DNA of 64,000 nt. It comes from an uncultured Planctomycetales bacterium (GTDB lineage: Bacteria > Omnitrophota > Gorgyraeia > Zapsychrales > JANLHA01). The translations under genes were made by a program, and so were the position numbers. Shown here one piece after another: positions 6,601 to 54,600 of the stretch. The stretch covers positions 7,743 through 71,742 of the forward strand of contig CAYJXI010000001.1 in assembly GCA_964374105.1 (NCBI GenBank), written 5' to 3'. Position 1 is the stretch's first letter, and each line of letters opens with the position of its first letter. The notes beneath the pieces are model-generated. The model saw only the letters and a list, made by a program, of their open reading frames with translations. It had not been told where the DNA came from and searched no databases.

Positions 6601-9600
6601 GGCGGAATCACTCGCGCGAAAGCTCTTCCATATCGAAACCTTTCAAGTGAGAACAGAGAGGCTTAAGACAGCGGATGTGTTGTTTGTGAAACTGCTTTTG
6701 GCTCCATTAAAAACATTTGTGGTGATCAATCTCCTGCCTGTTGCCGCAAGAGTTATTGCCGAACAACTCTGGGATTACTTTATGACAATGTTTTCCGCTT
6801 ATTTTATGAATCGTGATCGGTCAATACTCTTAGAACCAATTAACAAATTTATTCAATCATTTTTGAAGGAAAGAAATGAATCCAAAGGAAATCAACCCGC
6901 ACCTTACCTGCCTACCAAGGAACAAAAGGCCAAATACGAAGGCAGGGTTTATTCCGGCAAAGTGGTTGTTGAGGGTAAGGAAGTTAAAATTGTCAAACAA
7001 ACCGGCGTTCGACTCAATGTCCAACAGAAGAAGGCCTTGAAGGATCTCTACGCGGTTGTTCCTTACTTAGCCCAGGCACCGCCGGTGGTCGTGACCTCGG
7101 ATTTTGGTAAGACCGAAGGGTCGATTACCGCTTACAATCCTGCCGAAGGCATTCTCTACATTCACCTCTTTGTGCTCGATAAACTCGTTGAATTCGCCAA
7201 AGGTGACAGTCACCAAAAGGTGACAGTCACCTTTGTAAACTTCCTCAGAGGCGTCATCGAAGGTCATGAACGATTCCATGTTGAGGGTGCCAACGAAGCA
7301 GATGCCCGCCTAAAAACGATTGAATATCTTCAGGGGAATTTGGAAGTCTTACAGGCGACTAGGCAAATCCTTTCCTATCCAGATATCTTTGGAATCACAG
7401 CCGAGTCCCAGTTCGCTAAAATCCTCAATCAAGAAAAAGAATTCTTCAACGTAACAAGAAAAGAAGATGTTGAAACACAACCAACAGAATCTGGCCTTCA
7501 AGAGGAAGACTTAAGATCCCTTGATCAAATCACTGGCTTACGAGTTCGGATAGCGCATACGGTGACACCTTACGCGGCCAAATATCGTCAAGAATCCATG
7601 GAGCAGAGAAGGCGTCTCACCGGCCAGATGACCTATGATGAATTATTCTTCAACAAGATCTTACCCAGATTTATTGAACGCTATATCCGATACATCTCCT
7701 CTGATCAGCCGCAAGGCCTCATTGATATGCTTCTTATTTCCGGTGAGGGTGGTGGTGGCAAGTCTAGTATTACCGAAGAATTTGTCAGCAAGACAGGGGA
7801 GGTCATAGAGGACTTAAGTCTCAAACTTGGCAAGCCGTTAAGACAGATTATCCTTGCGATTATTTTTGATGATTATATTTTGCAAAAGAGCGACCGTGTG
7901 ATTGATCCCAAGACCCGAAAGACTACAGAGAATCCGCTTTTGAAATTCCAAGTTGAACGCTTTGTCAGTGATATGAAGAAGCTCCTGGAAGGCAAGACGA
8001 TCTATAAACCAATCTTTGATTCATTGACAAGGGGTCGAATCAAGATCGGGCTTGACAAAAATGATCGTCTGGCGGTTATTGCCGGTGGCCATTCAGTTCC
8101 CATTGAGATGGATGCGGCATCCGGCCAACCCTTTATCGTAGTGGAAAAATTGAAAGTCTCAGAGTTTACTTTGGGTAAAACAGCGATTTCTGTGTCGGCC
8201 AACCCAGCCGGCGGAATCCTCCTTAAGATAAGAAATACAGCTCATCACCTGACAAGAGATAAAGATCAAAATTGGGTCTTACACGTTCCGCAGAAAGGTG
8301 AGGTTGCGGTCTCTGATCAACCCATCGAGGCTTGGGAAGAGATCAATCCCAATGGCAAGATTATTATCGTGGAAGGGATATTGACCTTGTTTGATGAGAA
8401 TTTAGCGAAAGATGAAAGGGTGATCTCGATGTTTGTGGATGCCCATTTTGAGGCCAGGCTCCTCAGGATGCTGATTCGCTTCCAGGCTGAGGCTGCGGCG
8501 CGTGGGGAATCGGCCGCGGAATTTGAAGCAAGACGGAGATTGCTCAGATTGGAGGAAGAGGTTCCTTATATTTTACCGACCCGCCAAAACGCCCAATACA
8601 TTGTCACAAGCTTAAGCCGTTCTGAGATGATTTATGTTCTCTACTTACGGGGGAGATTGTTTAGTTCTCTTAAAGAGGTAAGAAGAACGATAACAGAACT
8701 GAAGATCAATCCGGTTGAATTGATCCGCCGTTTGAATAGGATTCCTAGAATAGTCATCATGGAAAGATTAGCCGGGACCAATAATATTATTCATCACATC
8801 CAAGGGACTTCCTTTGTGACCTTCTATGGCGAGGAATCCGGCCAGATTGTTTACAAGGCACCTCGGGAGAACTTTAAGAATTACTTTGAAACGAAGTTTA
8901 TTGAGTTTTATCGAACGGTCTTAAAGAAACGGCTGGGAGGCCTCATGGTGCCGAGTGGACTATTCAATCTTAAGACAATGGGATTAGAAATTTATCGCAG
9001 TATTGACAAGAGGCTGGTTCGATTGAGTAAGGTCCTTATCCAGAATCGAGTTGAAACATTAAAGGAGAGATTGAATAAACTGATTAAAGAAGGAGAAATC
9101 GAGAAGGCTAAGAGATGGATTGATCAATACTTTGAGATCCAAAAAGCCCTTTGGAGTGTTGGAGTCATCGATATGGATCCTAAGATGCTTGAGAAGTATG
9201 GGATTATGGTCATGGAGGATGGGCGAGAAAAGGTGGTTGTTATTGGCATTGATCGATTGTTTGCTACTCAAGAACGATTCGAGCGGGCCGTTTATCTCAA
9301 AGAGGGAGTCCGACCAAGTCAACAGGATCTTCCGAAAGAATTCGTGGATTATTACGATCAAAAGGTCGATGAGGAGATCCCTGATTTTGAGGGATTCCTC
9401 AAGATTTTTGGAAGCAGGATCCCTGAAGCCCACGGGGTGGCTAACATCGCTGATACAGAGATTCGTAGAAAACAAATGGAAACAATCGTCAAAGAAGTCA
9501 TAACCGCCACGATGTTCAGACTGGGTCAATTCTTAAACCAGATGATGAGAGAAAACAAGGAGGTTGTTGATTTTCCGTTTATCTATTGGCTGGCCCTTTA

Positions 9601-12600
9601 TCGCGAAACCATTCATACTTACGCGACTTTGCAGTACACATTGGTTGACCATGTCTATCAGCGGGTTATCAATGATCAAGAGGTTTACCGAAGATTGAGG
9701 GACCTCAGCCAAAAGAAAGATCGATTTGAGGACTTTAATCAAGAGATCATTAAACTCGTTCATGAGGTGGTCAAGGAACTGAAATTAGGGATCACAAAGC
9801 GTGAGATTTACAATATCGCGGAAGATCTCTTCAGCTACGAAACGTATATGAGAAGAGAAAAAGGCCGCACTGATTCTGGAGCGAACCCCGCCCCATTTGA
9901 ACCAACACAAGACGAGAAGTCTAGGTATGAACCTTTAAGATTTTCCATGAAAGTCATTGATGGGGAAAAAGGCGAGGTCTCAGTTATAGAAGACGTTGTC
10001 CGATATTGGACACAAAAACATGCGGATGTCTTAAAAGACCTTTATGAACGAGTCGCTTATCTCGCCTTGGCTCCACCGGTTATTATTACCTCTGACTTTG
10101 ATAAGACAAGAGGTTCAATTGCCGCCTATAATTCCGCCGAAGGTGTCCTCTATATTCATCTTTTTGTCTTCGATAAGCTGGTTTCCATTAAGCATCTCAA
10201 CCTTATCGGTCGGTTTGGTCAACTCAATCATGAATATAAATCCGCCTTCTTAATGTTTTTAAAAGGAGTTATTGAAGGCCACGAGCGGTTCCATATCGAG
10301 GGCATTTTAGACGAAGGGTTAACCCGGCAAAAGACCATTCAATATCTCAGTCAATGGGAACATCGAGAGGTTCTTTTGGCCACTCGTCAAATTTTAATGG
10401 CTAAGAATATCTTTGGTGTTGAGACACAGGAAGATTTCTTTGTTACTATTCATGAGCTGGATGATTTCAGCCTTACCCGTCTGACGATTTTCGATAGTAC
10501 TCTAAGCGACTCCATCCACTGGGATTTCAGTCTGGAACTCCTGGCACAGAGAGAAGGCATCCCGGTTACCCATCTTAAGCAGAGGCTTAATGGCAAGACC
10601 ATAATGCTGGTTGGTATTAATAGTAACAGCATGATTGTTAACTTGGCGCGTCTATTGCCAGCGAGCTCAATCATTGTTGTCAACCCCGACAGCTCAATTA
10701 TTTCTGGTGAGGTCGCAAACGTCCGGTATATTCATGATGGCGTTGAAAACATCGCCCGGTACTCAGTTAACGGGGTTGATCTCATCTTCTCCTCCGGGCT
10801 CTTTAATGAGGATTATCCCGGGATCAAGCCGCAGCAATATCCGGCCTTTGCAAAGGCTATGAAGGAAAGTCTTGCTGCTAAGGGACTCATGCTCATTGGC
10901 ACTGGTCTTACGGGTAATGAAGTATTTGAGAAAGTTTTACGGACAGAAGATTTATTCGTAGAAAAATTATCTGAGATAGGAAGCTGGATATATCTGGTTA
11001 CAAAGCAAGATACAAGTGACAGTCACTCCCGCCAAGGCGGGATGACTGTCCTGCCTGCCGGCAGGCAGGTCACTTCTGGAACTCGAGTGGCATTTAAATT
11101 TATTAAAGGGCTGTTGCAGGCTTCGCTTGCTGTCATGCATGTTTTGGGGCAAGCGGTTCAACCAATGCGTCACCTACCGTGGCTGGTGAGGCGCATTGTC
11201 AAGAGTTATTCTGTAACAGCCCTTCCATCTATATTTAAGTTCTTAGCCAAGATGGCGGGTGTATTAGCCATACAAATAGTTGGCATGGGCGGCGGGAATA
11301 TCGGGGTGGTTTTGGTTATTACCACGCTGACATTCATTGTGCTTTGGGGAGGCTATAAAATTTCCAAGAATGTTAAACAATTCGTTGATCAGGAACGCCA
11401 ATACTTAACCAGACTCAAAGAATTGGCTGAAAGACTGAAAGAAATTGGTCAACGGATTCCTGAACTGGAAGAAAAAGCCAAGCGATTGTCCCCGGAAGCC
11501 CGAGATGCGGTGAAACAAGGACAGGAGAAAGTCTTAGCGGCCGTTGCCGGCGATCATTTTGAAGAGGCGTATGAGCTTCTTGAGCATTTATGGCAGACAA
11601 TCGAAGGTTATATGAACAATCTCATCGGCATTCCGGATGAATTGAAATATTTATTAAAGGAGCAGGAAGCGATTAACCAAAAAGGCAAGGCTATTGAGAA
11701 ACAACTTGTTTCCTTACGTAGCAGGGTTTCACGGTTCGTTGAATTCCTCTCTAGTCGCCTCCATAAACAACTGCGCCAGGAAGAGTCTGACCTTATTGTC
11801 AGCTGTTGTTATGCAACACTAACTTTTGATTTCGCGGTCCATGAAGCGGAATATCAAGCCGAAAGTACTTTGCGTGATATGACCTATGTTTTGAATTATC
11901 TTATCAGCGAATACACCCATGTCTTGAGAGAGAAAATGGAAGAAAGGAATGAGGTCGCTGTACTTTCCCCTGAGCAGATTGCACTCTATCACGAGCAGTA
12001 TATCGAGAAAAATATAAGACCAAAGATTGCCAGAGAAATCACGAGAGAAAAAATCAGTCCACAGAAGATTGACCAGCTTTTGGCCTATTTGAATGAATCG
12101 GCCGATCATATGGTCGAGGTTATGCCTCGAGGGGCGCCGGAAGAGGTACTTAAGAAAGCCAAAGAATTAAAGGCCAAGAGGAGCGCCATAGACAATTACA
12201 CATTAGAGGAAATTGCCCGAAGATTCGATTTCTGTAAGGCCTGCGCCCCCAATCAGGTTTATGGAAGGATCATCGCGGCGTCAGAACGGGTGGGTCAGTT
12301 TGAGAGAATTGTTCGCTTCAACCAGAGACTCTATGACTTAAGCGAAAAGATTGAATATATCGGCACAAAGGTCGGTGTTGATGTAAACCTTAAGCGTGGT
12401 TTTTCCAATCTTGAGCATACCTTCGGTTTGACGTCACCCCTGGAAGGCCTGGCCCGAGAAATTCTTTCCATAGATGATATTAAGCGCTGGAGGATTGTCA
12501 GAGACAGCGAACTGGCCAAGAAACGTTTTGGCGGGGAATTTTTAAGTCAAGTCAACGAGGCTTTGTTTAAGTTAATTGTCCATGACATCTTTGCCGAATC

Positions 12601-15600: not shown

Positions 15601-18600
15601 ACCGGTCTGGTTTGAATTACTTACTCTCTTGGCGCAGAGATTGGGCAAGCAGGTATTGATCCCTGTTAAGGTGGCAGGCATGATCTTTGGTATAACAGAA
15701 AGTTTACAGGCTCAGCATATTCGGCCAATTGAATTGCCTGCTGAATTAAGCGTACTGCGTGTAGAGATGTTTAGATTTCCATCCAGGCTCTGGTATGACG
15801 ATCTTGGATTTACAAAGATTGATCTAGCTCAATCGTTTGAGCTGGAAGTATCCGGACAATTCTATATCTTCCCAGCGAAAAGGGATGATCAGCGCGAAGA
15901 TAATCCTGTGACTCCTGAGCCCACCGCCACAAGGTCGGGTGAACCGCTTTCAACAGAACAAGAAGACAAACTTCGGGAATACCTTAAACTCAAGGTAGGG
16001 CAGTTCAGCAGTTATGCGGACATTAAGGTAGACCAGATTGAGGCAACCATCAAGGCCTTGCGTGAGGCGGGCTTGAAAGCCTTGGCGAAGCGGCTGGAAG
16101 AACTCAAAGAAGCTCGTAAAATCCGCGCTGGGCCCAATGATGTTTTTGAGGAATTAAAGAATTTCGGCATTGATCTCTTGGCCTTCAACTTTAAAGACTG
16201 GATCATCATCCATCCGGAATTAGTAGAAACCCCCCATCGCATTCGCTTGCATCAAATCCTCACCCATGAGACAGCAGCAGTCCTTGGCTTCTCACATAAG
16301 ATTAACCTCATGTTTGAGAAGGTCATCACCAAAGAATTCACACAACAAGAACCAGGGTTTATTGATTTAGGTGAAAGAGAAAAGGTGTCTATCCCCGTTT
16401 CTGTAGTTGACAAAGTCGAGACTATCACTTTTAGAACTCAACCAGTTGGTTATCAAATCAAGAACAGACAGGTCATTCGGTTAGAGAATAGATTAAACCC
16501 GGATTTTGCATTGGCAAAATCCGCCCGAAGGGCCGCTACGGCATCCCGCCATGGCGGGACGCCTAGCGGGGTTAACCCCGCCAAAGGCGGCCGAAGGCAA
16601 AATTTGCAAAGCACTTTTCTGTATAGAAACAATCAACGAGGTCAAAGTCCTATTGCAAATTTTGGGTTAAAAGGCGATATGGCTAATGCTGTTCTCGGCA
16701 GAGGCAAGGGAGTCACTTTGTGGGAGGGCGGGGCTATCCAATGCAATTATTGTGTAATTTGGGATAGTTCAAGACGACAAGGGGCGATCATCCACACGAA
16801 TTATCTCCAATCCAAAGACATGATGGTGTCTTTCTTGAGAAATATTTTAGAGATATTAGGAATTCCATTAGAGGATAAGAGCTATTTAAGAGATCACGTT
16901 TTGACAATGATAGCTAATGCTCCTCACCAATCGGTCTTTGTCAGTGAGATGTCAAAGAGAATCGAAACCGTGCTGGCTGACAGCTTGGATGAATTAGGAT
17001 TGCCTCGGCTTAGGACGGATACCAGCGTTGCCTGGTATGTTACTCATATTCAATTTTTCGTAGATAAAGGAATAATACGATCAAGCTATAAGATTAACGA
17101 AAGGCAATTTTATCAAGTGGACTTAAAAGAATTGTCTAGATTGCGAAAAATGGGAAAAATGGGGACTGTCCCCATTTTTGAAGCCTCCGCGCCAATCTTC
17201 CGTGCCCTGCCTGCCGGCATAACAGGACCGCTTGAAGCCTTCGCTCCAATCTCCCGTGGCTCCCTGTACCACGTAGGGTACAGGGCCATGAACCCAACGT
17301 GGTTCATGGGGGTCATGAGAATTGTTTCCCAAACGACAGCGGCCCTTTTAAAATCTTCCGTGGCAGGCCCCGTAGAGAAACTTTACGGGGCAGGGAGGTC
17401 GCCGCAGATACCACTTGCACAAATCAAGGGACCGGTTATGCCTCACCATCCGTGGCAGGTGACGAGCATTCACCAGGGCCCATCTGCGGCGGCCTCTTCT
17501 TATCACAAGTCACAAGACATCCTTCGACTTCGCTTGGGACAAGCAAGTCAGCCCGCCCTGGTCTTCGCAACTGGCGGGCCAGGGAGGTCAGCCCGCCCCG
17601 GTCTTCGCAACTGGCGGGCCGGGGAGGTCAGCCCGCCCCGGTCTTCGCAACTGGCGGGCCGGGGAAGTCAGAAGACCCAAGATTCAGGACGCACAACGCA
17701 GAACACAGAACCCAAGACTCTGAACTCATTTGCACCTATCGTGATTGTGGGTTTAGGGATTGCAACGGTTGTCATCATCATGACGATCAAGGCTAAGAAT
17801 CGACTCATGAAGATAACCAAAGACTTTTTAAGTATTGCGACATTGATGGCCGTTGTTGGAAGTCTTTGGACGATTTGGATAAATCGTGAAAAAGAAGTTG
17901 AAGTGATTCCAAATACTCTTGATTCCCTCCCCCTTGTGGGGAGGGTTAGGGAGGGGGTGAGGTTACAGTCTTCACCCTCCCCTAGCCCCTCCCATCAATG
18001 GAGGGGAAATACAGGATTGGGAGAACAGGACGATTCAGCAAGAATTGTTTCGAGTGTCGGCCCAGAATTCTACAGAAGTGTCAGTGCCATACTCAACAAT
18101 TGGTTAGAGGAGAGAATGAAATATATTGTGATTGAATTAGCACCCAGAATGAGTCAAGAACAAACACGGAACCTCTTTCATCTCCTGAGGGCCATGCAGG
18201 AGGTCACAGAAACAAGTGGCTTGAATACACCTCTGCTGGGTGTAGATCGTATGGCCGTTGGCTTCCACGAAAGTGATCGTTTCAAAGCGAATCGTCAGTA
18301 TCGAGGGCCTGCCCGCGGGTGGCTGCAGGTGGAGAAGAATACCATTAAGCATGTGGTGGAAAATTTAATGCCTCGATATCCAACTCTTATTCCCATCGTT
18401 GTGAAAGAAGCCGCAGATTATCATAAGAGGGCAATGACCTTTAAAGATATTCAAAGATTAACGCCAGATGAACTCGGGGTGTTAGTCAGACAAAGGATTA
18501 AATTTGATGTGGCGGTTCATCTTGCTTACTTTATAGAGGAAATGAGTTTAGGTGTCAGGAGGTTAGCCACTCAACATGGTCTTCTCTTGGATCGAGAAAA

Positions 18601-21600
18601 TATTCCTGATTTCGAGGAAGGGTTGATCGAACGAGAAATCCGACAGTTAGTTAATGATAGCAACAATCCGCAAATCATAGACAAGATCTTGGAGGAAATG
18701 ACTAACCTGTGGCTTAACCAATGGAATCGAAAGCCGGGCGTCTTACAAAATCGGATTAATGAACAATCTCGATTGTCTCAAGAGATCCCATCTCTCAAAG
18801 AGAAGTTGGCAGATACGTTGAAAGACAAAAAAGATTTATTGATGCTTCGACCAGGCTCAGCATCAATCCTGAGCGAAGTCGAAGGATTGAGACTCTTTAA
18901 GACTCAAGCAACAAGCCCGAAAGAATTCTTATCATTCGCTGAACAGTTAATTCAACTGACTAAGGCTTCGGATGAACGTATTTCCCAATTACCCAGTGCG
19001 ATTAAGAAAGCCATCCGAACGATCATTAAAAAGGAAGAACGATTGAGCGAATTACCTGCCGAAATGGAAGAACTGAGAACCGAGATTAAGGCCTCCCAAG
19101 AGAAGTTTAGAAAAGAGATGAATGAACTTAAGCCGATCTTTAGATACATCTACATCGCGATGAGATTGCAGGTGATTTACAGCAAAGCTGTCCTTGCCTT
19201 GGAGAAGGATTCTCATCAATCCAATGCTACAAGCCAGGAGAAAAAGTCAGATAGCATCATTAGAGAAAAAATAAAATCTCAACCTAAGCCAGTTACAAAG
19301 AAAACCAATCGAAAAGGAAGATCATCCCTGAAGGCCATAAGTGAGGTTTATGGTCTAGTGCTTGTCGTAGGGCTTGTGATTTTAGGTGTGATAGAGCTCA
19401 TGCGACAAATCCAAGAGTCGCAATGGACCTTGGGTGAGCGGTTAAGACAAGTTCATCAAACAATAAAGAGACTCTTGCCTTTCCGTTGGATGGAAGTTGC
19501 AGGTTCAGGTGGCCTTTCTTTCCCGATGTTTATGGAAGGTATTTTAAACAGAGGAATAGGTGATAATCCATTTTTGATTCATGGCCGAGATGAACGATTA
19601 ATGCTGCCGGTATTTGAACAAATGGCGGATGCGCTTGAAGAACAATTGCTGGTAGCAAGTACAGATTTTCAATATTTGATTCACATTGTACAGAATGGGA
19701 AGAATAAAGAGAACCGTTTAAGGGCCTTAAAGACCTTGATTAAGATCCTGCTTGATCCCAACAAAGAACCTGCTTTGTTAAAGGCTGAGGGTCATCTCAA
19801 TGATAATGACAAACAAGCCTTAATCTCCACAAGGATTCATCAGGCCCTCTTTACTGTTATCAATACTGAAACTGATAAGGAAATTCAAAGATTGGCTTTG
19901 GAGGCGTGGGTTATTAATTCAATTGAATTGCTTGTGGAAAATCGTCATCAGGGGGATTCAGGGATTGTTCTCAATAGAATGTTACGCGAGGTCCTTGCCT
20001 TGAAGGTCGCCCGTTCTCAACAAGCCAATCTTGTCATGGAAGTCCTTGATGCCAAGATAAAACAATCCCCAGATAAGGACTCTCAAGAAGTTATTGAAAT
20101 GATGGATTGGCTAGAGAAGATCATCGAAAGAATCGATGATCTAGAAGAAGATGATGATATTGAATATCGAGGGTCATCGGGACTTAAGGCTTTTGGAACT
20201 GTCAGTATGATCATCCTTTTGGTGGGTTTAGGGACAATTTGGATTTACAAGAAATTTGCCCAAAACAAACACCCGGTGTTTGGCGGTGAACAAAACATAA
20301 GAGGTGAAGAAGTTTCTCGGAGAAAGGTATTCAAATGGATAGGATTAACCGCGGTAGCCATTGTTCTCAACTGCACAGGATGTTCACTAATCTGGCCACC
20401 CAAAGCACAGGATTTTGTACTTGTTAATTATGCGGTTGAGCCTCTCAACTGGGCTAAGATTACGGGGGATGCCCGAGTTGTCTTTTTGGGAGAGACCGAG
20501 CACTTTTCTTCAACCGATAAATATCTTGTTGCCAGATCTCTCAAAGAATTGAAGACATTAGGAATCACCCATTTGGCTCTGGAGAATTTGGAAGTTCATA
20601 CTCAGGATATTGTTGATGCGTATTTAAGAAAGGAAATTCCGTTATCCGAAATGGAGGAAAGGATCAGATCAAACCGGCTCCAAAGACCTAATGGGGAAAT
20701 TGTTTTACCGGCGATTTATCTGCCAGGATACAGAGAGATCTTCCAAAATGCCCAAGCATTAGGGATTAAAGTCATTGCCTTAGATAAACCTAAATATGAA
20801 GAACACACTATCCGGGAGCGTAATCTTCAGTGGGTAGAAATTATTTTGTCTATCCTTAAGAATGACAATAAGGCCAGGCTTTTAGTCATTAACGGCAATG
20901 CCCATTCGAATTATCAATATAGATTCCTAAGAAGAACAAACGCCTTTTATGCCATCCCCCAAGAGTTAACGCCAGTTGTCCCCGAGGCCATTCAAAACGA
21001 AGGCTTCCCAGTGGTCGTAACACAAATGGCAGGTATTGACGGCTCGGACCTCCCAAGCTATAGACATCTTATTATTGAGGCGGTAAAGAGATATGCTCAA
21101 GATGATAAGCGAGTAAAACTTGACCAGCCGCAGATGATGATTCCCCGCGAAGGGTTTGTTGATGAAATTTGCGATTGTTACATTTACGCCCCAGCCGTAA
21201 CGACTCTTAAAGCCTTTGACCCGGTGATCGGTTTGATTATGTTCCTTGGTATTGCCGGGTTGAGTTTATTGAAGAGGTCAAAGGTGAGGTCAAAGGTGAC
21301 TGTCACCTTTGGTGACAGTCACCTTTGGGCAAGGCGCTCGTTCCTAAGGACAGTCTTCGGGCTAGGGACAGCTTTAGGATTAATGCCATTTGCTCCAAAG
21401 AAAGCTCACGCAGAATTAACCGTTGATCAAAACCTGCCACCTGATCTGCGCCAGTTGTTTGAAATGGTAATCCCGATCGCACAAATCATGTTGACTAGGG
21501 AAATAAAAACAGAGGACCAGGAACTTAAAGAGCTCTCGAGAATTTCCCATCGATTCCTCTTAGAACCCGGCGTCAAGGTGACCTTTACCGTAGGTGATCT

Positions 21601-33600: not shown

Positions 33601-36600
33601 GGCGATCCCTGAAGTTAAGGAAGAGGCAGCGACCGGTGAGGTCGTGAAAGAAATTTCGATACTAGCTTTTGAAGAAGTTAAGATCAAAGCGCCAAGCGTG
33701 ACTGAAGAACAGAAAGAGTTAACCGCGGAAGAATTGTTTGATTCCGTAATTCAAGAAATGGTTGAGAATATGCAAGTTTATATTGAATTAGAAGCTGATT
33801 TTGATGATTTCTGGACCGAAGTGACATCTGGGAAAAAGATTTCTTCTGAGGTGGCGCAAGCTGTCCGCCGGCGGTTGATTAAGGAGTTTGACGTGCATGA
33901 TCCTCAGCAATTTTTCAGTGTACTTATGGCCAGTCATGGCAAAAAGTATGGTTCTTATAAAGAGTTGTTTGAAGCCACAAATGTAAAGACAAAGGTGATA
34001 CGAAGAATTGATCGTGCTTATAAGCGCTTAACGGGCTTAAGTTTGATTGAAGCGACACAAGGTGGGGCAGAGGGAGAGGATCAAGAAGAGCAAACCCAAG
34101 AGCGACTTCCCAATTACTATCATCTTATTGGTATGAATACCCGAGGCCGCGCTGAGGCGCCGACACAGGGCGATGTTCATCGGTTCCTCTTAGGCAAGAA
34201 GCGGCTGACAGGTGAGTTAAAGGGACTAGCCAAATGGCTCGAAGGTCATCTTCCGACTTATCAAGGCGATACATTAGAAGATTATCGCAGAGAATGGACC
34301 AGGGTTTACGGTAAAGAAAAAGGTTCACCCAATCGTTCTGAACCAACCGCCACCCGTTCGGGTGAGCCGTTGAGTGAAGAGCAGAAGCGTCAGCTGAGGG
34401 AATATCTTAAACTCAAGGTTGGGCAATTCAGCAGTTATGCGGTTGTCGAAGACACGGCCATTGATACAACTATTAAAGCCCTAGGTGAGGTTGCCTTTGA
34501 AGTCTTGGCGAGTCGCTTAGAGCAACTCAAAGAAACCCGTAAAATCCGCGCCGGGCCGAATGAGATCTTTAGTGAACTTCAAGCTCTCGGCATTGCCTTG
34601 TTAGCATTCAATTATGAAGAATACGTCATTGTCCATCCGGAATTACTCGCCGCAGAAAAGCAAACCCGTCTAAGGCAGATTCTTGCTCATGAAACTGGTG
34701 CGATTTATGGTCTGGAACATCAAACCAATCGATTATTAGAAAAAGTCATCACTCAAGAATTGACGGCTGAAGAAAGGGAAGCGATCCACAACGAAATTGT
34801 TAGTTTGGCTCAGCCAGAGGAAGAACAGTTAAGATCCTTCCGCGAGCTTATCTTAACGAAGATCACCAGTGACGCCATTAGGCAAAAGGCAAAGCAGATA
34901 TTAACCAAGGCGCGATTAAGGGCCCTCTTACAGCCATCAGCTAAGCATTACACCAATGAATTTAAGCCCATTAAAGATATTTTTGAAAATTCACGATACG
35001 GAGAAACTATTAGATTAGTCAAAGAGGATACTAAAGCTATTGTTGAGGCCGTCAAAGAGATGAAACACATCTTGGCAGTTAATCCACAGAGCCATCTGTT
35101 TGACATCGAACAATGGGATGAAAGGGTCTATGCTCCTTCCATGAGAGGAATGTTCGATCAATTTGAGAAGAAATCACTGACCATTGAGGGACTTAAAAGA
35201 CAGATGCAGAAAATAGTAGAGCCATTTAGTGTAGCCTTTGATCTTACGGAATTCATTAAAGAAAGCGAGGAGCTCGAATTCTATCATTTGGTTGAGATCG
35301 GCGCTTGGGTTTTAGCCAAGATCATTATTCCGCATGGGTTGGTGATTCAGGTTTCTCCATTTGAATCCAACAAGCTGATTAAGGGCCGGGTCCTTAAGGA
35401 TCGAACCGAATTGATTACAACACATGGGGCAGGATTCTCAAGGCAGATTCCGGTTTATACCGTTGATGCTAAGATTTCCGAATTTGGTTCAGGTATTGCT
35501 AGGCCAGATTACATTGTCATGCCATTGAATCTCCAGCATGAAGAACCCCTTATTCATTATCAAAAGCTCTTTAAGGCCTATAGGGAAGGCCGTTATCGTC
35601 CTAAACCGTTTGATATTGACCCGCACGGCTTTTTGCTGGATTGGGTGATGATCAACCTGGTTGGATCCAAGACGACAAGTGAGGTACAGCAACTGCTTAG
35701 AAAAGAGGCACTTCAAGAAGAGATCGCCCATTCCGATACCTTTGCCTTTGTGGAAACCCTCTGGGACAGGAAATATCATTACTTTATGAGGAGTGAAACT
35801 ATCCAATTTGTCCATACGATTTTAGAACCCTCGGGCTGGTTAAGAGAGATGTTCAATCAGCATAAAGAGAAGCCTGCTCTTCACTCACTCACTGCTGATG
35901 CGATTATTGAAGTAGAGGCCAAATTGCAATCTTTGATGAAATCACCTTACCCAGCCCATACGGTCTTGGAGTTCTTGTTAGCCAGTCTCTTCCCTGAAAC
36001 TGCCAAACTTGAAAAGCCCCAATACAAGGTTGCCTATAACACGCTGACTGTTTTGTTGGCCGTCGAACTTTTGAATAAGCCAACCATTGAACTTAAAGAC
36101 TGGTTTGATTTCCTCAAAGAGGTTTACCGGGATCTTGATTTGTTCAACAAACTCCTACCGGAAACTGCAAAGGAAATTTACGAACGGCATTTCTACAGTC
36201 AAGAAGAACGAGTAGCAATTCTAAAAGGAAAAGGTAACAGTCACAAAGAAGCTGGCAGGTCCCTTAAGGATTCTAAGGAAGGGCCGCAGACACTCGCCGC
36301 GTTTGAACCGCTGACATTCATTGCCTTGTTAGCGGGTTTTGGGATTTTAGGAGTTTATATGACCAGATGGGTTGCCGGCAGATTCAAGATCAAAGGGTCT
36401 GATCAACAACACATGCACCGGCGTGGATTTATAAAATTAAGTTTAGGAACTATGGGCTTGGCGGCATTCGCTCCGTTATTGACATGCTGCTCTTTAATTC
36501 CAGGTTCATCGCCGCGTAAAATTAACTCAGATCATTTGATTCTCATCGGTATGGAACACAATGTGTTCGGGGATCCGCAACATCCCGCGAGTGTCTTGCA

Positions 36601-42600: not shown

Positions 42601-45600
42601 CTGGATGATGATGCCCGCGATAATCATCCCTGTGGCTATCGTTACAATAATCAATTTTCTGGCTACAGTGAGCTTGAATATTTCTGATGTTCCTAGGGCG
42701 CCAAATGCGAGAATTGATAGATTAGAAAATATTTTTGCTAAATATTCCCTACGAGAATTATTCCAGAAGATGACTTCTTTCATCGTTAGTATACCCCTTT
42801 CCTTTAGAGAATTCAATGTCAGATTTAGCTGGGGTAGAAAATTTGAAGGGAATAGAAAAGGGAAACCAGAGGTTTCAGAAAAACAGACGAATTATAACAC
42901 GGCCCGTAATGTTCCATCAAGATTAACGAGCCAAGGCGAAAGAGGTGACAGTGATCTCTTTAGCTTTGATCAAGACGAGCGCCTTGGCAAAAATTATCCT
43001 GGGAGTCTTTTGATATCCAAGGAACTAAGACGAAAAGCAAAAGACAAGATTCGGCTATTAAAGGAATATGTTCAGAATGCCTTTAGGTCCTTAGATTTGA
43101 TTCAGCACGACTTGCATGTTCATTACGAAGATCGTAAAGGGAACACAGTTGCCGAATATCTGGGAGAAAGAAGAATTGCGCTTGATCTTGGGCTAGCGGC
43201 CGTAGCTCCATTATTGGATTCAGATATTACCTCGGTCCTTCGCTTCCAATCCTTGATCAGTGACATCATCCGTCATGAATCCAATCATTGGAGGAATGAA
43301 TATCAGAGGCTCGATGAGGGCTGGGATGAAATGCAGGTGCGGCTTTCTACTTATATGGAATTAGAAAAACCAGAGAATCAAGAGGAGTTGGTTGAGATCA
43401 TGGAGGCCTTCAAACAATTCCATATCATCGTAGACTCCTCCTATCTAGCGGGGTTAAGTACAAAATACAGGATTACCGTACCAAAACGATCAGAATTAGA
43501 TAGAAGCCTCGATCTTCTTAAGTCACCCCATGCCTGGCAGCGCCAGATTGCCGCAAGGGCCTTAAGGGTCATGGAACTGCCGCTTGAGAATACCGGCAAG
43601 ATAATCTTCATTATTGATTCCCTCTCTACCCGCGTAAAGAACTGGGAGGAAAAGGATGAAGATGTCCGTCTCTCTAGTATTGAATCGCTCGGCCGGATCG
43701 TTGAGAAGCTTGTCGTAACCAAAGGTATTCATGAAATTTATAACGCTTTGATTGCTGTCACAGCAGAACTAGGGATGGCCCTAAGGGTTGGGGGGAAAAC
43801 TAAGAACCGTCTGGCTATTGTCAGGACCTTGAGTGTTATTGGGGTTAAGACAGATTTTCTCATTCACGTTTTGCCTAGTCTCATTTATGCCCTTATTGAA
43901 GATACCGGAGTTGATGTCCGTCGCGAGGCATTGAAAGGTATCTTGGTAATCTTACGTCATCGACCTAAGGCGGTTAAGGAGGCCGTTAAATATATTGATG
44001 CAACTGGACAGGTGAGAACAACCTTTATGCACATTGCCTTTGATATGGGTAAATTTAAGGAACTGCGCAGTGTTCGGCAAAAGCTATTTGTCTATTGGAT
44101 GTTAGGGTTATCCCAAGATCAAAATATCAGAAAGGCCGGACTTAACGAAACGAATCGTAAATTTGCTCAAGGACAATTGGATAATCCCGATGAAGAAATC
44201 AAATGGCTGGCCAACGAATTCTTGAAATTGTTTGAGAATCAATCCAACCACAAACCTGAAGAAAAGTCAGGGGCGATCGGCGAAGGAAAGGCCTTTAAAG
44301 AGCGCGGTGAGATCAACGTAACTGGTTTAGATGAAAGGGAGCTTAAGATTGCCCGAAAGGGGATTAAAGAACTTAAAAAGAGAATTGAGTCGAGGAAGGA
44401 GCGGTTGTCAGCCGAAGATTACACCCAAGCCCAGGCGGTTGTAGCGACATTGATTAAGACTATCAACGAACCTTTTGGATTCAGGGCGTTTGCGGCCATT
44501 GTCAACGACGAACACGATTACCTCTTGGCCTTTAGCGATCTGGGCTTCATTGTTCTCACGGACGCGGTGTTTACAAAAGAAATGAGACCCTATTTAACTC
44601 GGATCCTTTTCCACGAAGGGTATGTGGCAACCTTTGGCGAAGGGTCATTGACTGATGAGGCGGTGCGCTTAAAGGCCCATAACGAGATTGTCCACGGTAT
44701 TGAAGACAGGATTTTTGGCGAGACAGAGAAGTATATCGCCAAACTTGAGGATTATATCCGCCGGCATATTTCTGCCATAGCTCCGTTTACGGATGGAGAA
44801 GAGAAACAAGAAGATCTTGAGGTGATTTTTGAGGACGATGATGAGTTGTTAGAAGGTTTAGGAAAATTTGCTGTAGAACCAGTTATGTCAGAAAGGCAAG
44901 CTAAACAAATCATTCCGCAGAAGATCACGAGTAGCAGCGACATCGGCGGCCGGCCAGAACAGCAGGATCGCTATGGGATTATTCCAATGAATTTAGAAGG
45001 CATTCCAAACGGCCGCGGCCTGCTTATGGCGATTGCCGATGGGCATGGGAAGCGGGGCGCTGAAATAGCCAAAAAAGTCATCAATAACCTGCCGGTTTAT
45101 TTTGCCGAAGCCTTGATCCAGCAGGGCGGCGATGTCAAGGAGGCCTTCCTCGATGCCTTTATTGACTTTGTTGAAGATACAAAAGATGAAGATAAAGGTG
45201 GAACAACATTATCAGTTGCCTATATCTCAGAGGGCGAGGAAAAGGTTTACGCGGCCTTTATCGGGGATTCTCTCATCTGGATTAGAAACCGCGATGGCGT
45301 GGTGGTAAGAAGACTCGGACACAGCGTAGGTGAAAATATTAAAGAGCGTGAGGCAGCCATTGCCCGCGGCGCGGTTTATAAAGAGTACGAAGGTGTTGGT
45401 TATATCAGACCATCGGATAAGACGAAAGTTGGGGAACTCATGATGAGCCGTTCCTTGGGAGATAAGAATTTTGATTCGATTCTTGACCGCATCCCAGAGA
45501 TATTCGAAGAATTTTTAAATGAAGAGAGCTTTATGGTGGTGGGCAGTGACGGCATTATACCGTTTACGATTAAAGCAGAAGAGGAAAAGGATCAGTACAT

Positions 45601-48600
45601 AGCAGAAAAGGTTTCAGCCGGTCTCAATGCTGAGGATATTGTCAATGACACCACAACCAGCGCCGAAGTTGCGGCTCTGGCTTTTAGCAAACACCCGTGG
45701 ATTGTCGATAATGTTACCGCCATTGTCTGGCGTGCCAGCAGAAAACAAAGAAAAGAGCATGTCCTCAATACAAGGCCACAACTCCTGTTAGAGGCACCGC
45801 CACAGCGAAAACTCTTGCCACGACCGGCACCGAGAGGGCTAAACGAAAAACGCATTTTTGAAGAATTAGAAAAATTAAAGGTGACTGTCACCCAAGGCGA
45901 TAATCACCTTTTTGTGGAACGATTGCAAAATGCAGAAGATAATGCCGATCGCATCAAGATATTGTTAGAAGCATATCCACTGGAAGGCGTCAACATCGAG
46001 GTTGCCTCACCCAGAGGATTTTTAAGTTTTAGGGGAGTCGGTCGAACCGAAAGAAAAGGTCCACATCATTATCAGATCACCTTGATAGGGGTATCAGGAG
46101 ATGTCGAGATTTATCTTCTGTTCCATGAATTTTTGCATGTGTACTTAGAAGAAAAAGGCTTGACCTTTAATCCGGTCGTTGAAGATGAATCCTTAAGTCA
46201 GTATCTCTTTAAGTTAAAGAACTTGATTAACGATTATATTATTGAGAAAGAAAACAAGAGACGATTTGGCAATCGTTTTGTTCATATCACCCGAGATTTA
46301 CGAGATCGAGATGTCAGAGGTAATCTTATGGGTATGGGGTTGGGCACAAATCTGGAAATCTTTATGCTTGCGTTAACTGCCAAAGTGACAACTTCCCTGT
46401 ATCCCGAACTAGCCGACTCCTTCTCTCAACAATTTATTGGCAAGGCGGTTGAGTACAAACCTCTAGATAACGTCCTCAAAGAGCTTCAAGGTGTCTCTAT
46501 CGCAAGTAGCCCAGAGGAATACAGAAGAACAATCACAAGACTCCAGGAGTTAATGACGAAAAGTTCTCTTACCTTTGAAAATGATCGGCCAGTTGTTTCT
46601 CTTAAGGAAACTAAGAAATTCATCGAAGAGATTGAAGCAGATATCCGCAGATTAATGAACTTAATTAGCGGTCAAGAGAGAGGCACGGCAAGTGAGGAGA
46701 AATTGAACACTTATTCCGAATTGCCCGTAACAGCAGAAGATCATAAACGGGCGGTTGATCAGTATTCTTTAGGTCAACAAAAAGAAATTGTTCATACCCA
46801 ATTGGCTTTGACTGAGGAAGGTCTTCAACTCGAAGTTGTTTCTGGTTCATTAATAAGTGATGGGGAGAAAACACTCAAACAGGATCTTAACAAACTTCTT
46901 GAGGAGATCCGTGGGCCGCCCGAGGTACTGAAGGACATCATTGATGTGAAACTTGTGATCACCACCCAACCCACCCAGTTAAGAGACGGCAATAGATACA
47001 CTATCTACATTTCCTCTGTCAATATCATTCGAAGGACAGTTTATCTCCATCCACAGTACTTCTCAATCAGTGATCAGAGATTAAGGCTGGATATTCTTTA
47101 TCATGAATTGGTCAGTCATCTCTTTAAACGCATCAGAGACGAACAGATGGCGATGGCTGATACCAAGGCCTTCCGGCAAAGACTGATTCAGAAAATCCAA
47201 GAAGATCTGGCCGTGTATCCTAGGATCTTCTTACATGAAATCACTAGAAACCTCAAACAAAAATTGGATCAGCAAATCTTTTCTATGGCAAGAACCCTCA
47301 ACCAAGGATTAGCGGAATATCCATTTATCAAGATCATTGACAGTATGAATGAATTCTTATCACAGATTGCGGAGAGATTAACTCATCCGGATGAAAAGAT
47401 GAGGATTTATCCTAAGGTGGTTGTCAGGACTCATGAAACCGATGCCCGTCATACCGAAGTTCCCATCACTCACCGCCAGGCGAGAGTGGCGGTCTTCCCA
47501 GTGGCGGGCAATCCCTTGCACTGGGCGCATATTTTGATCGGACTTAAAGTCATAGCCCAATTTGGCATCGACAGAGTTATTTATCGTATTCAGGGTTTAG
47601 ATGATCGCAAACCTGATCTTGAAATCAATGAGAAACTCCGCCATCACATTGATGAACAAATGATGAAAGTCTTTGCCCCGCTTTTTGACTATTCCCCATC
47701 CGGAAAAGGTTCCACCTTTGACGGCGAGACTGATTTTGACCGATACTATGGCTTTAATGCGGGGGTGAAACTGGATCTGTATTATGTGGTTGGTGCTGAT
47801 CATTATCACCGTGAGGTCAACGGTAAGGTAGATACCATAGGCAAGTTGGAAAATTTTGCTGTCAAGGCCGGTCGGGAAATCCAGGATACCTTTGTCATCT
47901 TTATTAAGCGAGGCGAGCTAAAGCACAAGGTTGAGACAGAGCTTAACGTCAATTTTGTGGATGAGATCACCTTTGAGGCCTCCTCGTCCATGGCGAGATC
48001 CGGCAATGTCGCTATCATTCCGTACCTGATTTATCGATATGCACAGAAACATCACCTCTGGTGGTTTACTCAATTTTCTACGCATACCATGACTGAGAAA
48101 ATTAAAAGATCGCTCAGATATGAGATTCATAAAATTGCAAAGGTGCTTAACCGCGGTTTAGAAGATCATCCATTTAATAAAATGTTACCAACAATTGATA
48201 AACTGTCTGCCAAGATCGCCACCCGATTGCACAATGACAATATCAATCCTCAGGTTGTGATCCGAACCCACGAAAAGGATGAACGAGAAATCAATTTATT
48301 CGGCAAACAAAGAATAAGGATTGCTGTCTTCCCGATCTCAGGGAATCCAATCAGTTTAGGCGATCTCATTGTCGCCTTAGGAGCCATGGCTGATTGGGGG
48401 GCAGATAAAGTCATCTTTGTTCCGGCCGGGCAAGAAAAGGACAAGGATTTTGTGGTCGCAGAAGAATACCGACATAGAATCGCAGAAGAGCTTTTGAAGA
48501 GATTGGCTCCCTTCTTTGAATATTCCCCGATTGCCAAGGGAACAACGGATGATGGTGAGACACTTTTCTTAAAATTCTTTAAGTTGAATCAAGGACAGAC

Positions 48601-51600: not shown

Positions 51601-54600
51601 CGGCCCGACAGAGCCGCAAGGCGGGGCGGGCATGCCACATGACACAAAGGAGGGTGACAGTCACCTTCCTTCGGCCATTGGCAAGGGAAGGGCGGTGGAA
51701 GAAGCCAAGAGTATCGCTCTTGAACCGCTTAAAGACCAATACCTTGAGGCCATTAATCGGGCAAGGAATGTCTTAGAAAGATTGGCGAAAGATCAAACGA
51801 TTCCTTTGGATGACCGGGAGTTTCTCATTCGCCTCCTTGGTTATCTTGAGGCCATGGGGCTGTTGTTAAATCAGGGAATCGTCACTATTGGGACATTTAA
51901 GGCGATCATTCGAGCGGTTGATGATTATCTGTTAGGATTCGGCGAACACCAGCCCATGCGGGTGACATTATCCATTGAGGTATTGGATGCAATCTTGAAG
52001 GATTCTTCTTTAAATCCAGAGCACATGGATCTTTTGATTGCCGAATATCTCTTCCATGAGGTTTATGCCTCCTTTGCACCGGAAGTGGATACCAAAGGTC
52101 AGCGTGATGAAGAGGAACACAAACGACGTTACGAAGGGATTCAGCGCCGGCTCTTTGGCAAAGAAAATATATTGGCTAAGTATTTGCGGGGTGTCCTTGA
52201 AAGTCATCTTTCACAGCCTGAAGTGGTTTCAAAAGCCCTCGATTCCCTCCCCCTTGTGGGGAGGGTTAGGGAGGGGGTGGAATCACAGTCTTCACCCTCC
52301 CCTAGCCCCTCCCATCAAGGGAGGGGAAGTGAAGAAGAAGCTGTAGAGAAAGTTACTAAGCCATTGACACGTGAAGGAGAGGATGAGCTGGCGGGATCAA
52401 ATATCCTGGATGTCATGAAGGAAGAAATCGAAAAGTTGCAAAATCATGTGATAACCCAGCGTCTTAAGAAAATGGAACTCCCGAAAGAGATTTTAGGATT
52501 TATTGGGGAAATAGATCAGTTATTGATGAAACTTAAGACCTCCACACGTAAAAATAAATTCAGTTTGATTCTCCAAATTTTGATTGCCATGAGCCGATTG
52601 CTTAAGGATATATCGCTAGGTGGAATGGACTTGGAAAAGAGACTTGTTGGATCAGAGTTTACTAATGAGCTAATGGGGCAATTTGAACGCCTTGGGATCA
52701 AAGGAAATCTGCAAATCATAGGCCTTGGTGATTTTTCTAGTGCCGGTAAAATCAACGAGGCCGTGGGATATATAAAGGCTTATGTCACCCTTCTTCAGAT
52801 AACCACCCGAGTTATCTCCCTTAAGGCCATGCGCTCTGGGCTAGAATTTGTCCTCAAAGGACCAGAAACCGATCAATTCTTTTTTACTCCCCTCTTTGGC
52901 CCCTCGAAACAAATTCGGGAAAAAGTGACCTGGAAACAAACAGGGGAGATCAGGCCATTATCGGATGTGGATTTGTTTGTTGAACAGTTGCGGTCATTGT
53001 TAAAGCGTCTCAATGAATTAGAAGCCATCCATGATAAAGCGGATCGGGAAACGATTGGGGAGATCTACCGTGATCTTCTCAAAGAAGGGGAAGATTTGCT
53101 TTCTCAAGAGAAGGGATACAAGGCTCCCACAGCCGATGGCAAGGCAGGATTGACCGGTGAGTTTAGGACTCAATTAGAAATATTCTTCCTTAAGATGACA
53201 ACAACGATCAATTGGGATATCCAGGTATTTTCAGATAGGTATTCGCAAACGTTTAAGTCAAGTATGTTTAAGTCGCTGGGCTTTGTTCAGCATTATTTTG
53301 GGAACATCATAAGACTCATGGGGATTGAGGAAGTAAGGGTATCAAAACTATTTAGTAATTTTGAGTTTAGAGCGGAATTAGCTAAAGAACCAGGAATGAT
53401 CACTCTGGATAAGGAAGAATCATTCGTGTTTGAGATGCAAACCTTGTCTTCCTTTGTTGAGGACAAATTAAGAAGACGTCCCGAGGCCCGTAAATATTTT
53501 GATTTTATGAATCAATTGAGTAAGAAATTCAAGGGTCAACTATCAAAAGTTCTATTTGAAGTAACGGTTTCGGCGATATCGATCAATGTCCTCTCAGAAG
53601 TACTCAAACTCTATTATTCCACAACAAAGATTAAAGACCAACAAAGCCAGCTGAAGCAATCATTAACCAAGTTCTTTGATAATTCGAGGATTCTAAGTGA
53701 GAAGACCGATGCGAAAGAAAAGGATCAATTGAGGGAGACCTTAGTCGATTTGATAAATCTTTTTGATCGAGTTGGGAGTGATGATGAGATAAGAGAGATC
53801 TTCATCAAGATGGCCCAATTCCGAGGCATTATGGATGCCTTAAGTTTTGATGAAACAAAAGCTCCAAAGATAGATCTGCCGGTTAATCAGCACTTGACTG
53901 ATCCTAACATAGATCAAATGGAGTATGTGATCCTTCAGCCCGGGATTGAGGCCTCCTTATACCTTCCCACAATAAAGGCCTTAAAGAAACGCAAGTTTAC
54001 GATTGTAGAAAATGATTTGTTCGCAAGGGAGTACTTAAAGAAGCTCATCGAGGTCATGGGTCTTGAATCAAGGGTAAAGATCAAAGAGATGGATTTAACT
54101 CGCCTTAAGGATGAATTTAAAGAAGAGAGCATCTCTACCTTAAGAATCAAAGAGGACGCGATTGCCTGGGATGAACTCCCAGAGGAGTGGTTTAAGACAT
54201 TGCCTTCCCTTATTGCCAAAGGCGGCGATATTCAGATTGCCCTCAAACCGCAAGGGTCAGAATCCAAAGTGATTCAATTGAAGGAAGTCCTGGAATCAGA
54301 AAAGGATAGACCTGAGGTTAAATTGATCCAGATGCTTTATCAGCACTTGGTTATTGAAAACAAATGGTCATTAGAATTTGGTCGCATGGGTAAGGGTAAA
54401 TTAGCCACGATGAAGACTGGCTTTGAGCGGAATGATATATATTTCGAGACGTTATTTATCTTTACCAAACCATACCCCGTTAAAAAGGAAGAGGCGAAAG
54501 CAGCAGAAGAAGTTGAATCTCAAGAACCCGAAGAAAGCGAGGAGCCAACTCTGCCGCAAGAAGAGACCATAAAACCAGACACAATCGTCTTGCCGGCAGA

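Follow-up and report, generated by a model that had tools for sequence, protein, structure and literature searches.

Repetitive extragenic palindromic (REP) elements are short hairpin-forming palindromes, dispersed in many copies, found mostly at the 3' ends of genes and often arranged as doublets that fold into longer structures, and REP-associated tyrosine transposases (RAYTs) are a class of proteins that bind and cut these hairpins (PMC3116915, PMC3337134, PMC3479197). The doublets are treated as units under the concept of REPINs, REP doublets forming hairpins (PMC3116915, PMC3337134). Intragenic REPs, often dimers encoding 20-30 amino acids (aa), have been described in Opitutus terrae and Rickettsia (PMC3733652). 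Here we describe a palindromic 13-mer, GGTGACWGTCACC, that recurs within one giant open reading frame (ORF) spanning a 64,000-nucleotide (nt) stretch of contig CAYJXI010000001.1, from an uncultured bacterium of the Omnitrophota; this whole stretch is the window below, and all positions are counted from its first base. We consider it likely that the 13-mer forms one arm of a repeat of the REP/REPIN type belonging to a RAYT-like transposase family, and that it has been captured in frame in the giant ORF. In-frame REPs are already known; what is found here is a family with neither a GTAG nor a CGTC tag, and the gene that hosts it is unusual.

The family has much in common with the REP/REPIN-RAYT system: short hairpin palindromes, doublets that fold into longer hairpins and, in other genomes, dispersal in many copies, a position mostly at 3' ends and repeats flanking a Y1/HUH gene with an HxH motif and a tyrosine, whose nearest solved structure is that of E. 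coli TnpA-REP. It differs in several respects. The end tetranucleotide that defines the GTAG- and CGTC-tagged REP superfamilies (PMC3733652) is missing; each arm is itself palindromic, so that the arms are both direct and inverted repeats; the spacer is only 2-28 nt long; an 11-nt core is common to at least five phyla, whereas the described REPs are usually lineage-specific; and the copies in the window are intragenic. With the intragenic REPs and the Rickettsia palindromic elements (PMC3733652) the window copies share their nature as in-frame palindromes, often dimers, that are translated as short additional peptides in proteins conserved in other respects and survive only where the protein tolerates them. 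The sequences are unrelated, however, and the likeness to the Rickettsia elements is functional only, that of an in-frame palindromic insert. The inserts are also shorter here, 4-12 residues as against the 20-30 aa of intragenic REP dimers, and a single giant multi-enzyme host has four or more loci of the family plus other kinds of palindrome.

An earlier note on this DNA, made from the sequence alone, had drawn attention to six perfect in-frame copies of the 13-mer, at 7202, 7219, 21295, 21311, 45880 and 51653, and had held that they are too many for chance. All six positions were confirmed, and no copy occurred in 100 dinucleotide-preserving shuffles. Perfect copies of the 11-nt core, GTGACWGTCAC, number seven, the additional one being at 11016. 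When up to one mismatch is allowed there are eight, where 0.26 would be expected; all seven perfect core copies sit in the host frame. The pairs flanked by AAA and TTT were likewise recovered, at 7199-7234 and 21291-21327. Degenerate copies exist as had been supposed, and that at 11015 was placed correctly, but those given at 36228, 42943 and 45895 belong at 36233, 42944 and 45896, and a variant at 17161 had been missed. The host gene and the copies are as follows.

2-64000, plus strand: giant gene, one stop-free frame with codons counted from base 2, 21,333 codons, open at both window ends.
7199-7234: doublet A, AAA-GGTGACAGTCACC-AAAA-GGTGACAGTCACC-TTT, read as K-GDSH-Q-KVTVT-F.
11015-11052: decayed doublet, AGTGACAGTCACT followed by a nested GC hairpin, CCCGCCAAGGCGGG, and by ATGACTGTCCT.
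17161: half-site variant GGGGACTGTCCCC, within a perfect 25-nt palindrome at 17155-17179, AAAAAT-GGGGACTGTCCCC-ATTTTT.
21291-21327: doublet B, CAAA-GGTGACTGTCACC-TTT-GGTGACAGTCACC-TTTG, read as KVTVT-F-GDSH-LW.
36233-36245: probable decayed singlet, AAA-GGTAACAGTCACA-AAG, read as GNSH, one mismatch to the core.
42944-42956: possible decayed singlet, AGA-GGTGACAGTGATC-TCT, read as GDSD, two mismatches.
45877-45911: doublet C, partly decayed, AAA-GGTGACTGTCACC-CAA-GGCGATAATCACC-TTT, read as KVTVT-Q-GDNH-LF.
51647-51670: singlet D, AAGGAG-GGTGACAGTCACC-TTCCT, with flanks that lengthen the stem, read as E-GDSH-L.

The second arm of doublet C, GGCGATAATCACC at 45896, is the partner of the perfect copy at 45880 and has three mismatches, and doublet C as a whole shares 83% identity with doublet B across 35 nt. 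The change in AGTGACAGTCACT at 11015 is symmetric, so the palindrome is retained, and a perfect 20-nt palindrome (11050-11069) comes next after this decayed doublet. The copy at 36233 is probably a decayed singlet and that at 42944 possibly one, both assignments being weak; a further motif match at 58637 is probably due to chance. A 12-nt tandem duplication (21275-21298, two copies of AGGTCAAAGGTG, read RSKV RSKV) extends into the first arm of doublet B, which suggests local slippage at the edge of the element.

The word is read as GDSH in phase 0 and as (K)VTVT in phase 2, and the translations given in the earlier note, KGDSHQKVTVTF and KVTVTFGDSHLW, are borne out. Two unrelated readings of one word also bear out its view that the conserved unit is the DNA word and not a peptide. 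Its emphasis on the use of two phases as a special property, however, does not survive. In the third phase the 13-mer contains a stop, GG-TGA-C, and, the word being palindromic, the opposite strand has it as well. Phases 0 and 2 are therefore the only ones in which a frame without stops can accommodate the word, and for a pair of arms spaced 16 or 17 nt apart only one phase of three is open. The two-phase pattern is thus what remains once the TGA phase is excluded; it is the reading frame that acts as the filter, and the pattern is no property of the element.

Since each arm is its own reverse complement, adjacent arms pair together. In doublet A the stem is 16 bp long with a single A/A mismatch at its centre (RNA -26.4 kcal/mol, z -6.95; single-stranded DNA (ssDNA) -16.9 kcal/mol), and in doublet B a flawless 17-bp stem closes a 3-nt loop (RNA -33.6 kcal/mol, z -7.4; ssDNA -21.1 kcal/mol); for both, the ssDNA fold is as good as the RNA fold. 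The hairpin of doublet C is weaker (RNA -15.1 kcal/mol, z -3.2; ssDNA -5.9 kcal/mol). RNA folding energies are -15.9 kcal/mol for singlet D, -39.9 kcal/mol (z -6.7) for the stretch 11008-11072 and -13.9 kcal/mol for the palindrome at 17155-17179, and over the window stems measure 11-17 bp with z-scores of about -2.4 to -8; for A to D the z-scores lie between -2.8 and -7.4. Twelve distinct doublets with non-palindromic arms keep the complementarity between arms (at 5-6 of the 6 outer positions). As inter-arm complementarity is kept and single-arm symmetry is lost, it is the long hairpin, and not the dyad of the 13-mer, that persists. Some copies also resemble intrinsic terminators. A doublet in the Omnitrophota metagenome-assembled genome (MAG) JBAZKL01, which has A8 and T7 flanks and lies between convergent or tandem genes, is terminator-like on both strands; intergenic copies at locus L068 pass as terminators. 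Doublets A and B, in contrast, have only AAA/TTT flanks and were not called terminator-like in the terminator scan because their T tails are too short; among the family copies in the window only the minus strands of doublet C and of 17155-17179 were. A terminator would also leave the association with a transposase unexplained. A search of ten doublet-bearing loci against Rfam gave no match at the gathering score.

The earlier note had taken the element to be specific to this gene, and this is contradicted by its distribution: such doublets are scattered through numerous genomes from six or more phyla, for the most part in intergenic DNA. When one genome of each species was scanned for pairs of 13-mers no more than 30 nt apart, at least 119 loci were returned, the source contig not being among those listed, and a metagenome scan for the AAA/TTT-flanked form returned 39. 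Among the matches listed, the genome loci come from Chloroflexota, Actinomycetota, Acidobacteriota, Bacteroidota, Pseudomonadota including Burkholderiales, Planctomycetota, Spirochaetota and the one Omnitrophota MAG, the arms are 2-28 nt apart across genomes, and 146 distinct doublets were counted in loci other than the window. The Chloroflexota copies, from dozens of Anaerolineae MAGs, always have the form aGGTGACAGTCACCt-NNN-aGGTGACTGTCACCt, and several MAGs hold more than one locus. The note had itself named a generic genome-wide word, such as a restriction-avoidance artefact, as the result that would speak against its view; the word is indeed genome-wide, but as a mobile repeat family rather than such an artefact. 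In the searchable literature the 13-mer and the 11-mer gave only unrelated primer and eukaryotic matches.

Nearly all of these doublets are intergenic and outside long open frames; most follow the 3' end of a gene or separate two convergent ones. The family is also found in frame in other genes: at L018 a cluster with a 33-nt period, read as GDSHL repeats, interrupts an MttB-family gene, whose MTTB Pfam match falls into two stretches, and at L017 a doublet within a metallophosphatase is read as SVTVTAVTVTA. The long frame across the doublet at L027 looks like a spurious antisense frame (it is arginine-rich; no family search was run), and the long frames over doublets in loci of 69-73% G+C are probably spurious as well. 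Arms of the type GGGGAC/GTCCCC form doublets at L158 and L094. About 20 short contigs with the doublet come from one metagenome, Ga0114945 (L121, L125-L127, L129, L134, L140, L150, L152-L155, L158 and L159 included), as is expected because a high-copy repeat breaks assemblies. There the doublet is often nested in an outer inverted repeat, GTCATTGCGAGG...CCTCGCAATGAC, the whole being a longer high-copy composite palindromic element. A phage element was also considered and ruled out by a single match among 2.9 million viral contigs.

When the neighbouring ORFs were clustered over all loci, one recurrent family emerged, with HUH and tyrosine motifs. Its gene adjoins or lies between copies of the 13-mer in eight loci from five phyla (tblastn; among the matches listed), namely L001, L036, L037, L047, L058, L076, L086 and L098. 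The protein, of about 190-230 aa, belongs to Pfam Y1_Tnp, has as its top NCBIfam model the REP-associated tyrosine transposase NF047646, and has invariant H63 and H65 (HxH) and Y123-x3-N-P. A single RAYT sequence gave no match against the PDB; with a seven-member profile E. coli TnpA-REP (4ER8, 3.5e-11) came ahead of the IS200/IS605 transposases (ISDra2 TnpA, 6e-4). In the reciprocal test six homologues were fetched by protein alone, and each of the six has hairpin doublets on its flanks that contain the GTGACWGTCAC core; some homologues in the list carry the JGI label "REP element-mobilizing transposase RayT". The flanks of the RAYT genes at L161-L166 often have A for the outer G (AGTGAC...GTCACT), the same variant as at 11015 in the window. 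Beside the RAYT gene at L086, GGTGAC/GTCACC and GGGGAC/GTCCCC arms are mixed, which links the variant at 17161 to the family. The core is identical in at least five phyla, with transposases only 26-63% identical, which could reflect a recognition constraint or horizontal spread.

Two arrangements around RAYT genes deserve mention. At L161 and L166, in unrelated assemblies, the RAYT-like gene and hairpins (2501-3097) lie between hsdR and hsdM/hsdS of a type I restriction-modification operon. Upstream of the Bacteroidota RAYT gene at L037 (1996-2210) the 13-mer and GGTGACTGTCTCC take turns within a tandem array of four 56-nt units. For clusters such as that at L001, integron attC sites and toxin-antitoxin operators were weighed as explanations and rejected, as there is no GTT core and the transposase is the sole recurrent neighbour. 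Mimicry of Shine-Dalgarno and anti-Shine-Dalgarno sequences by AGGTGA and TCACCT was noted as a candidate and set aside.

The host frame has no stop in the 64-kb window, as against 893-1653 stops in each of the other five frames. Pfam domains are scattered along it (PRK, cytidylyltransferase, two DnaJ, ChaN, GNAT, sugar epimerase, Ribul_P_3_epim and glycosyltransferase), and the giant protein combines enzymes from unrelated pathways with numerous hydrophobic stretches and is multi-transmembrane. The same architecture characterizes the "multi-enzyme metabolic cluster" class of giant Omnitrophota proteins (bioRxiv 10.64898/2026.06.07.730766). With a self-trained codon model, six of the seven core copies are no more than 60 aa away from the weakest 4.2% of the coding signal, a threshold picked post hoc, against 31% expected (P = 0.004). 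Doublet B falls in the lowest 1.5% of the signal, with a stretch resembling a C-terminal anchor, FDPVIGLIMFLGIAGLSLLKRSK, upstream and one resembling a Tat/Sec signal peptide, RRSFLRTVFGLGTALGLMPFAPKKAHA, downstream. Singlet D is in a low-complexity linker, and at its minimum within 60 aa the coding signal drops into the lowest 0.5%. Doublet A is the exception, filling the sole indel-prone loop of a conserved HExxH module, nine residues ahead of the HExxH. In an AlphaFold2 model, which is confident for the module (mean predicted local distance difference test (pLDDT) 79.7), GDSH forms loop residues 102-105 and KVTVTF the start of the HExxH helix, and the block has a pLDDT of 63, compared with 85 and 90 alongside.

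The HExxH module itself occurs in at least five copies in the giant protein, at aa 356, 2420 and 3425 (nt ~707-1249, 6899-7450 and 9914-10489) and, as a second subtype, at aa 1441 and 2000. Its consensus is APPVVVTxDF..GSIxAYN..LYIHL..EGHExFH..GANE, and copies of one subtype are 45-51% identical. Foldseek found no significant match to the module in the PDB. The module may represent a zinc-peptidase-like unit embedded in the giant protein, and one may then ask whether that protein processes itself.

In the REP/REPIN reading, two arms a few bases apart fold as one long hairpin in ssDNA or RNA, and in other bacteria the family is a dispersed multi-copy repeat, nearly always intergenic, typically at 3' ends, that also flanks a RAYT-like Y1/HUH gene. 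The copies in the window would have been delivered by a RAYT of the source organism. A copy can persist only if it leaves the frame intact and does not bring in the third-phase TGA, and the survivors are found mostly in linkers and loops able to tolerate an insert of 4-12 residues. The range from perfect copies (A and B) to decayed ones (C, 11015, 36233 and 42944) would reflect repeated arrival followed by drift. We infer that the copies are passengers and not selected signals.

A number of observations weigh against this account. The 64-kb window has no RAYT gene, and mobilization in the source organism is therefore only presumed; the 14 RAYT-flanked loci include no Omnitrophota. The transposases score 76 and 66 bits against NF047646, just under its equivalog cut-off of 80. 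At a distance of up to 8 nt from the hairpin foot, GTAG/CTAC occurs in only 4 of 146 doublets and CGTC/GACG in 9 of 146, the flanks being A-rich and T-rich instead; a different guide tetranucleotide may lie inside the arm. Protein searches around doublets A and B did not find an orthologue of the giant gene, so that no empty site could be shown. Against a database of 5.8 billion proteins the best match to the regions around the two doublets was 42% identical, with no close relative: the surroundings of B had no homologue, and those of A had one stand-alone homologue at this identity, a gene without the motif whose alignment does not reach the A site. The loop filled by doublet A is 12 aa long, compared with 10 and 20 aa in the paralogues, and there is no clean net insertion. 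Finally, that A and B are both perfectly intact could point to selection instead of youth.

A different history, one that shares the REP identity with the reading we favour and may hold for some copies only, is that neighbouring genes were fused and lost their stops, and that former intergenic REPs or terminators are now read through as fossil spacers. The position of doublet B, exactly between the anchor-like and signal-like segments and in the lowest 1.5% of the coding signal, fits this, as does the module that follows aa 2516, whose counterpart elsewhere is an independent gene of 976 aa that has a signal peptide itself. It also agrees with the interval 16427-18121, which is like non-coding DNA with dense hairpins and a 40-nt tandem repeat in three phases, and with the occurrence of the family at gene 3' ends in other genomes. 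However, doublet A lies within a conserved domain, nine residues before the HExxH, and not at a junction; an old fusion predicts decayed hairpins, whereas those of A and B are perfect; and no in-frame ATG, GTG or TTG start remnant follows B. We therefore regard fossil spacers as an unlikely explanation. It is improbable, in our estimation, that the copies are selected RNA signals on the giant transcript, acting in transcription pausing or attenuation, as a block to 3' exonucleases, as RNase III sites or in ribosome pausing between modules. The RNA hairpins are highly stable, the copies concentrate at module boundaries, Omnitrophota MAG copies with A8/T7 runs score as bidirectional terminators, and RNA-level roles have been proposed for REPs (PMC3733652). 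Yet A and B have no U tract and are not terminator-like in the scan, the ssDNA fold is equally good, the decay of C, 11015, 36233 and 42944 argues against constraint, and no orthologue was found that could show conservation.

The dyad symmetry of the 13-mer is perfect, and its central W needs no complementarity between arms (A/A in doublet A), as would suit a duplex DNA site bound by a dimeric protein, either an operator or a chromosome-organizing site. The matS sites bound by MatP, GTGAC-RNY-GTCAC, have the same GTGAC/GTCAC half-sites in a dyad. The window word, however, has a 1-nt centre where matS has 3 and so does not fit GTGAC-N3-GTCAC; it forms hairpin doublets and has a different taxonomic range. 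Moreover, the arm spacing varies between 2 and 28 nt among the matches listed, the transposase is the only neighbouring gene in common, and arms that vary keep their complementarity with each other and lose the dyad within each. Such a site is highly unlikely. Among the roles listed in the earlier note, the operator and the restriction site are thus disfavoured by variable spacing and arm covariation, and the remnant of a mobile element and the structured DNA or RNA element are upheld, in the form of a hairpin arm that flanks RAYT-like genes elsewhere. A repeat at the peptide level, a restriction-site artefact or chance has nothing in its favour beyond the recurrence itself: one word gives two unrelated peptides, is over-represented rather than avoided, is found outside genes in other genomes and was not expected at all from shuffles. 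We give these readings practically no weight.

With the 13-mer as a REP/REPIN-type arm, an odd word read in two phases becomes a recognizable object, a REP/RAYT-type repeat family. Its in-frame copies, in the giant gene, the MttB-family gene and the metallophosphatase, give a direct view of the way in which mobile hairpins are filtered by selection for an open frame, and no such elements are reported in the two papers that describe giant genes of the Omnitrophota type. For annotation, GDSH and VTVT peptides in such proteins are to be taken as repeat-derived and not as motifs. That several kinds of strong palindrome occur in the linkers bears on how such genes grow and on how the cell copes with a transcript longer than 64 kb. 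A bolder and rather doubtful idea is that REP doublets were part of the building of the giant gene, through fusion across stop-purged spacers, with the hairpins serving as in-frame junctions or recombination substrates by which modules were shuffled or duplicated; doublet B would be such a seam.

Other palindromes and repeats are present in the same frame. The coding signal is weakest at 16427-18121, which has the densest strong palindromes (16500, 16544, 16566, 17155, 17262, 17286 and 17925) and an R/S/P/G-rich translation, and resembles non-coding DNA held stop-free. Within it, at 17536-17671, there are three copies of a GC-rich 40-nt tandem repeat; as the period is not a multiple of three, consecutive copies are read in different phases, and the repeat is another DNA-level element held open in frame. 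A 110-nt repeat (17899-18008 and 52219-52328, 90% identity) includes a hairpin, CCCTCCCCCTTGTGGGGAGGG, and both copies encode ...LPLVGRVREGV.SQSSPSPSPSHQ.RG.... At 33084-33115 lies a perfect 32-nt palindrome, AGGTAGGGGCACGGCATGCCGTGCCCCTACCT (-31.1 kcal/mol), with GTAG at its start and CTAC at its end. By analogy with the GTAG-tagged REPs of the Planctomycetes-Verrucomicrobia-Chlamydiae (PVC) superphylum, which it resembles, this palindrome may represent a second in-frame REP family.

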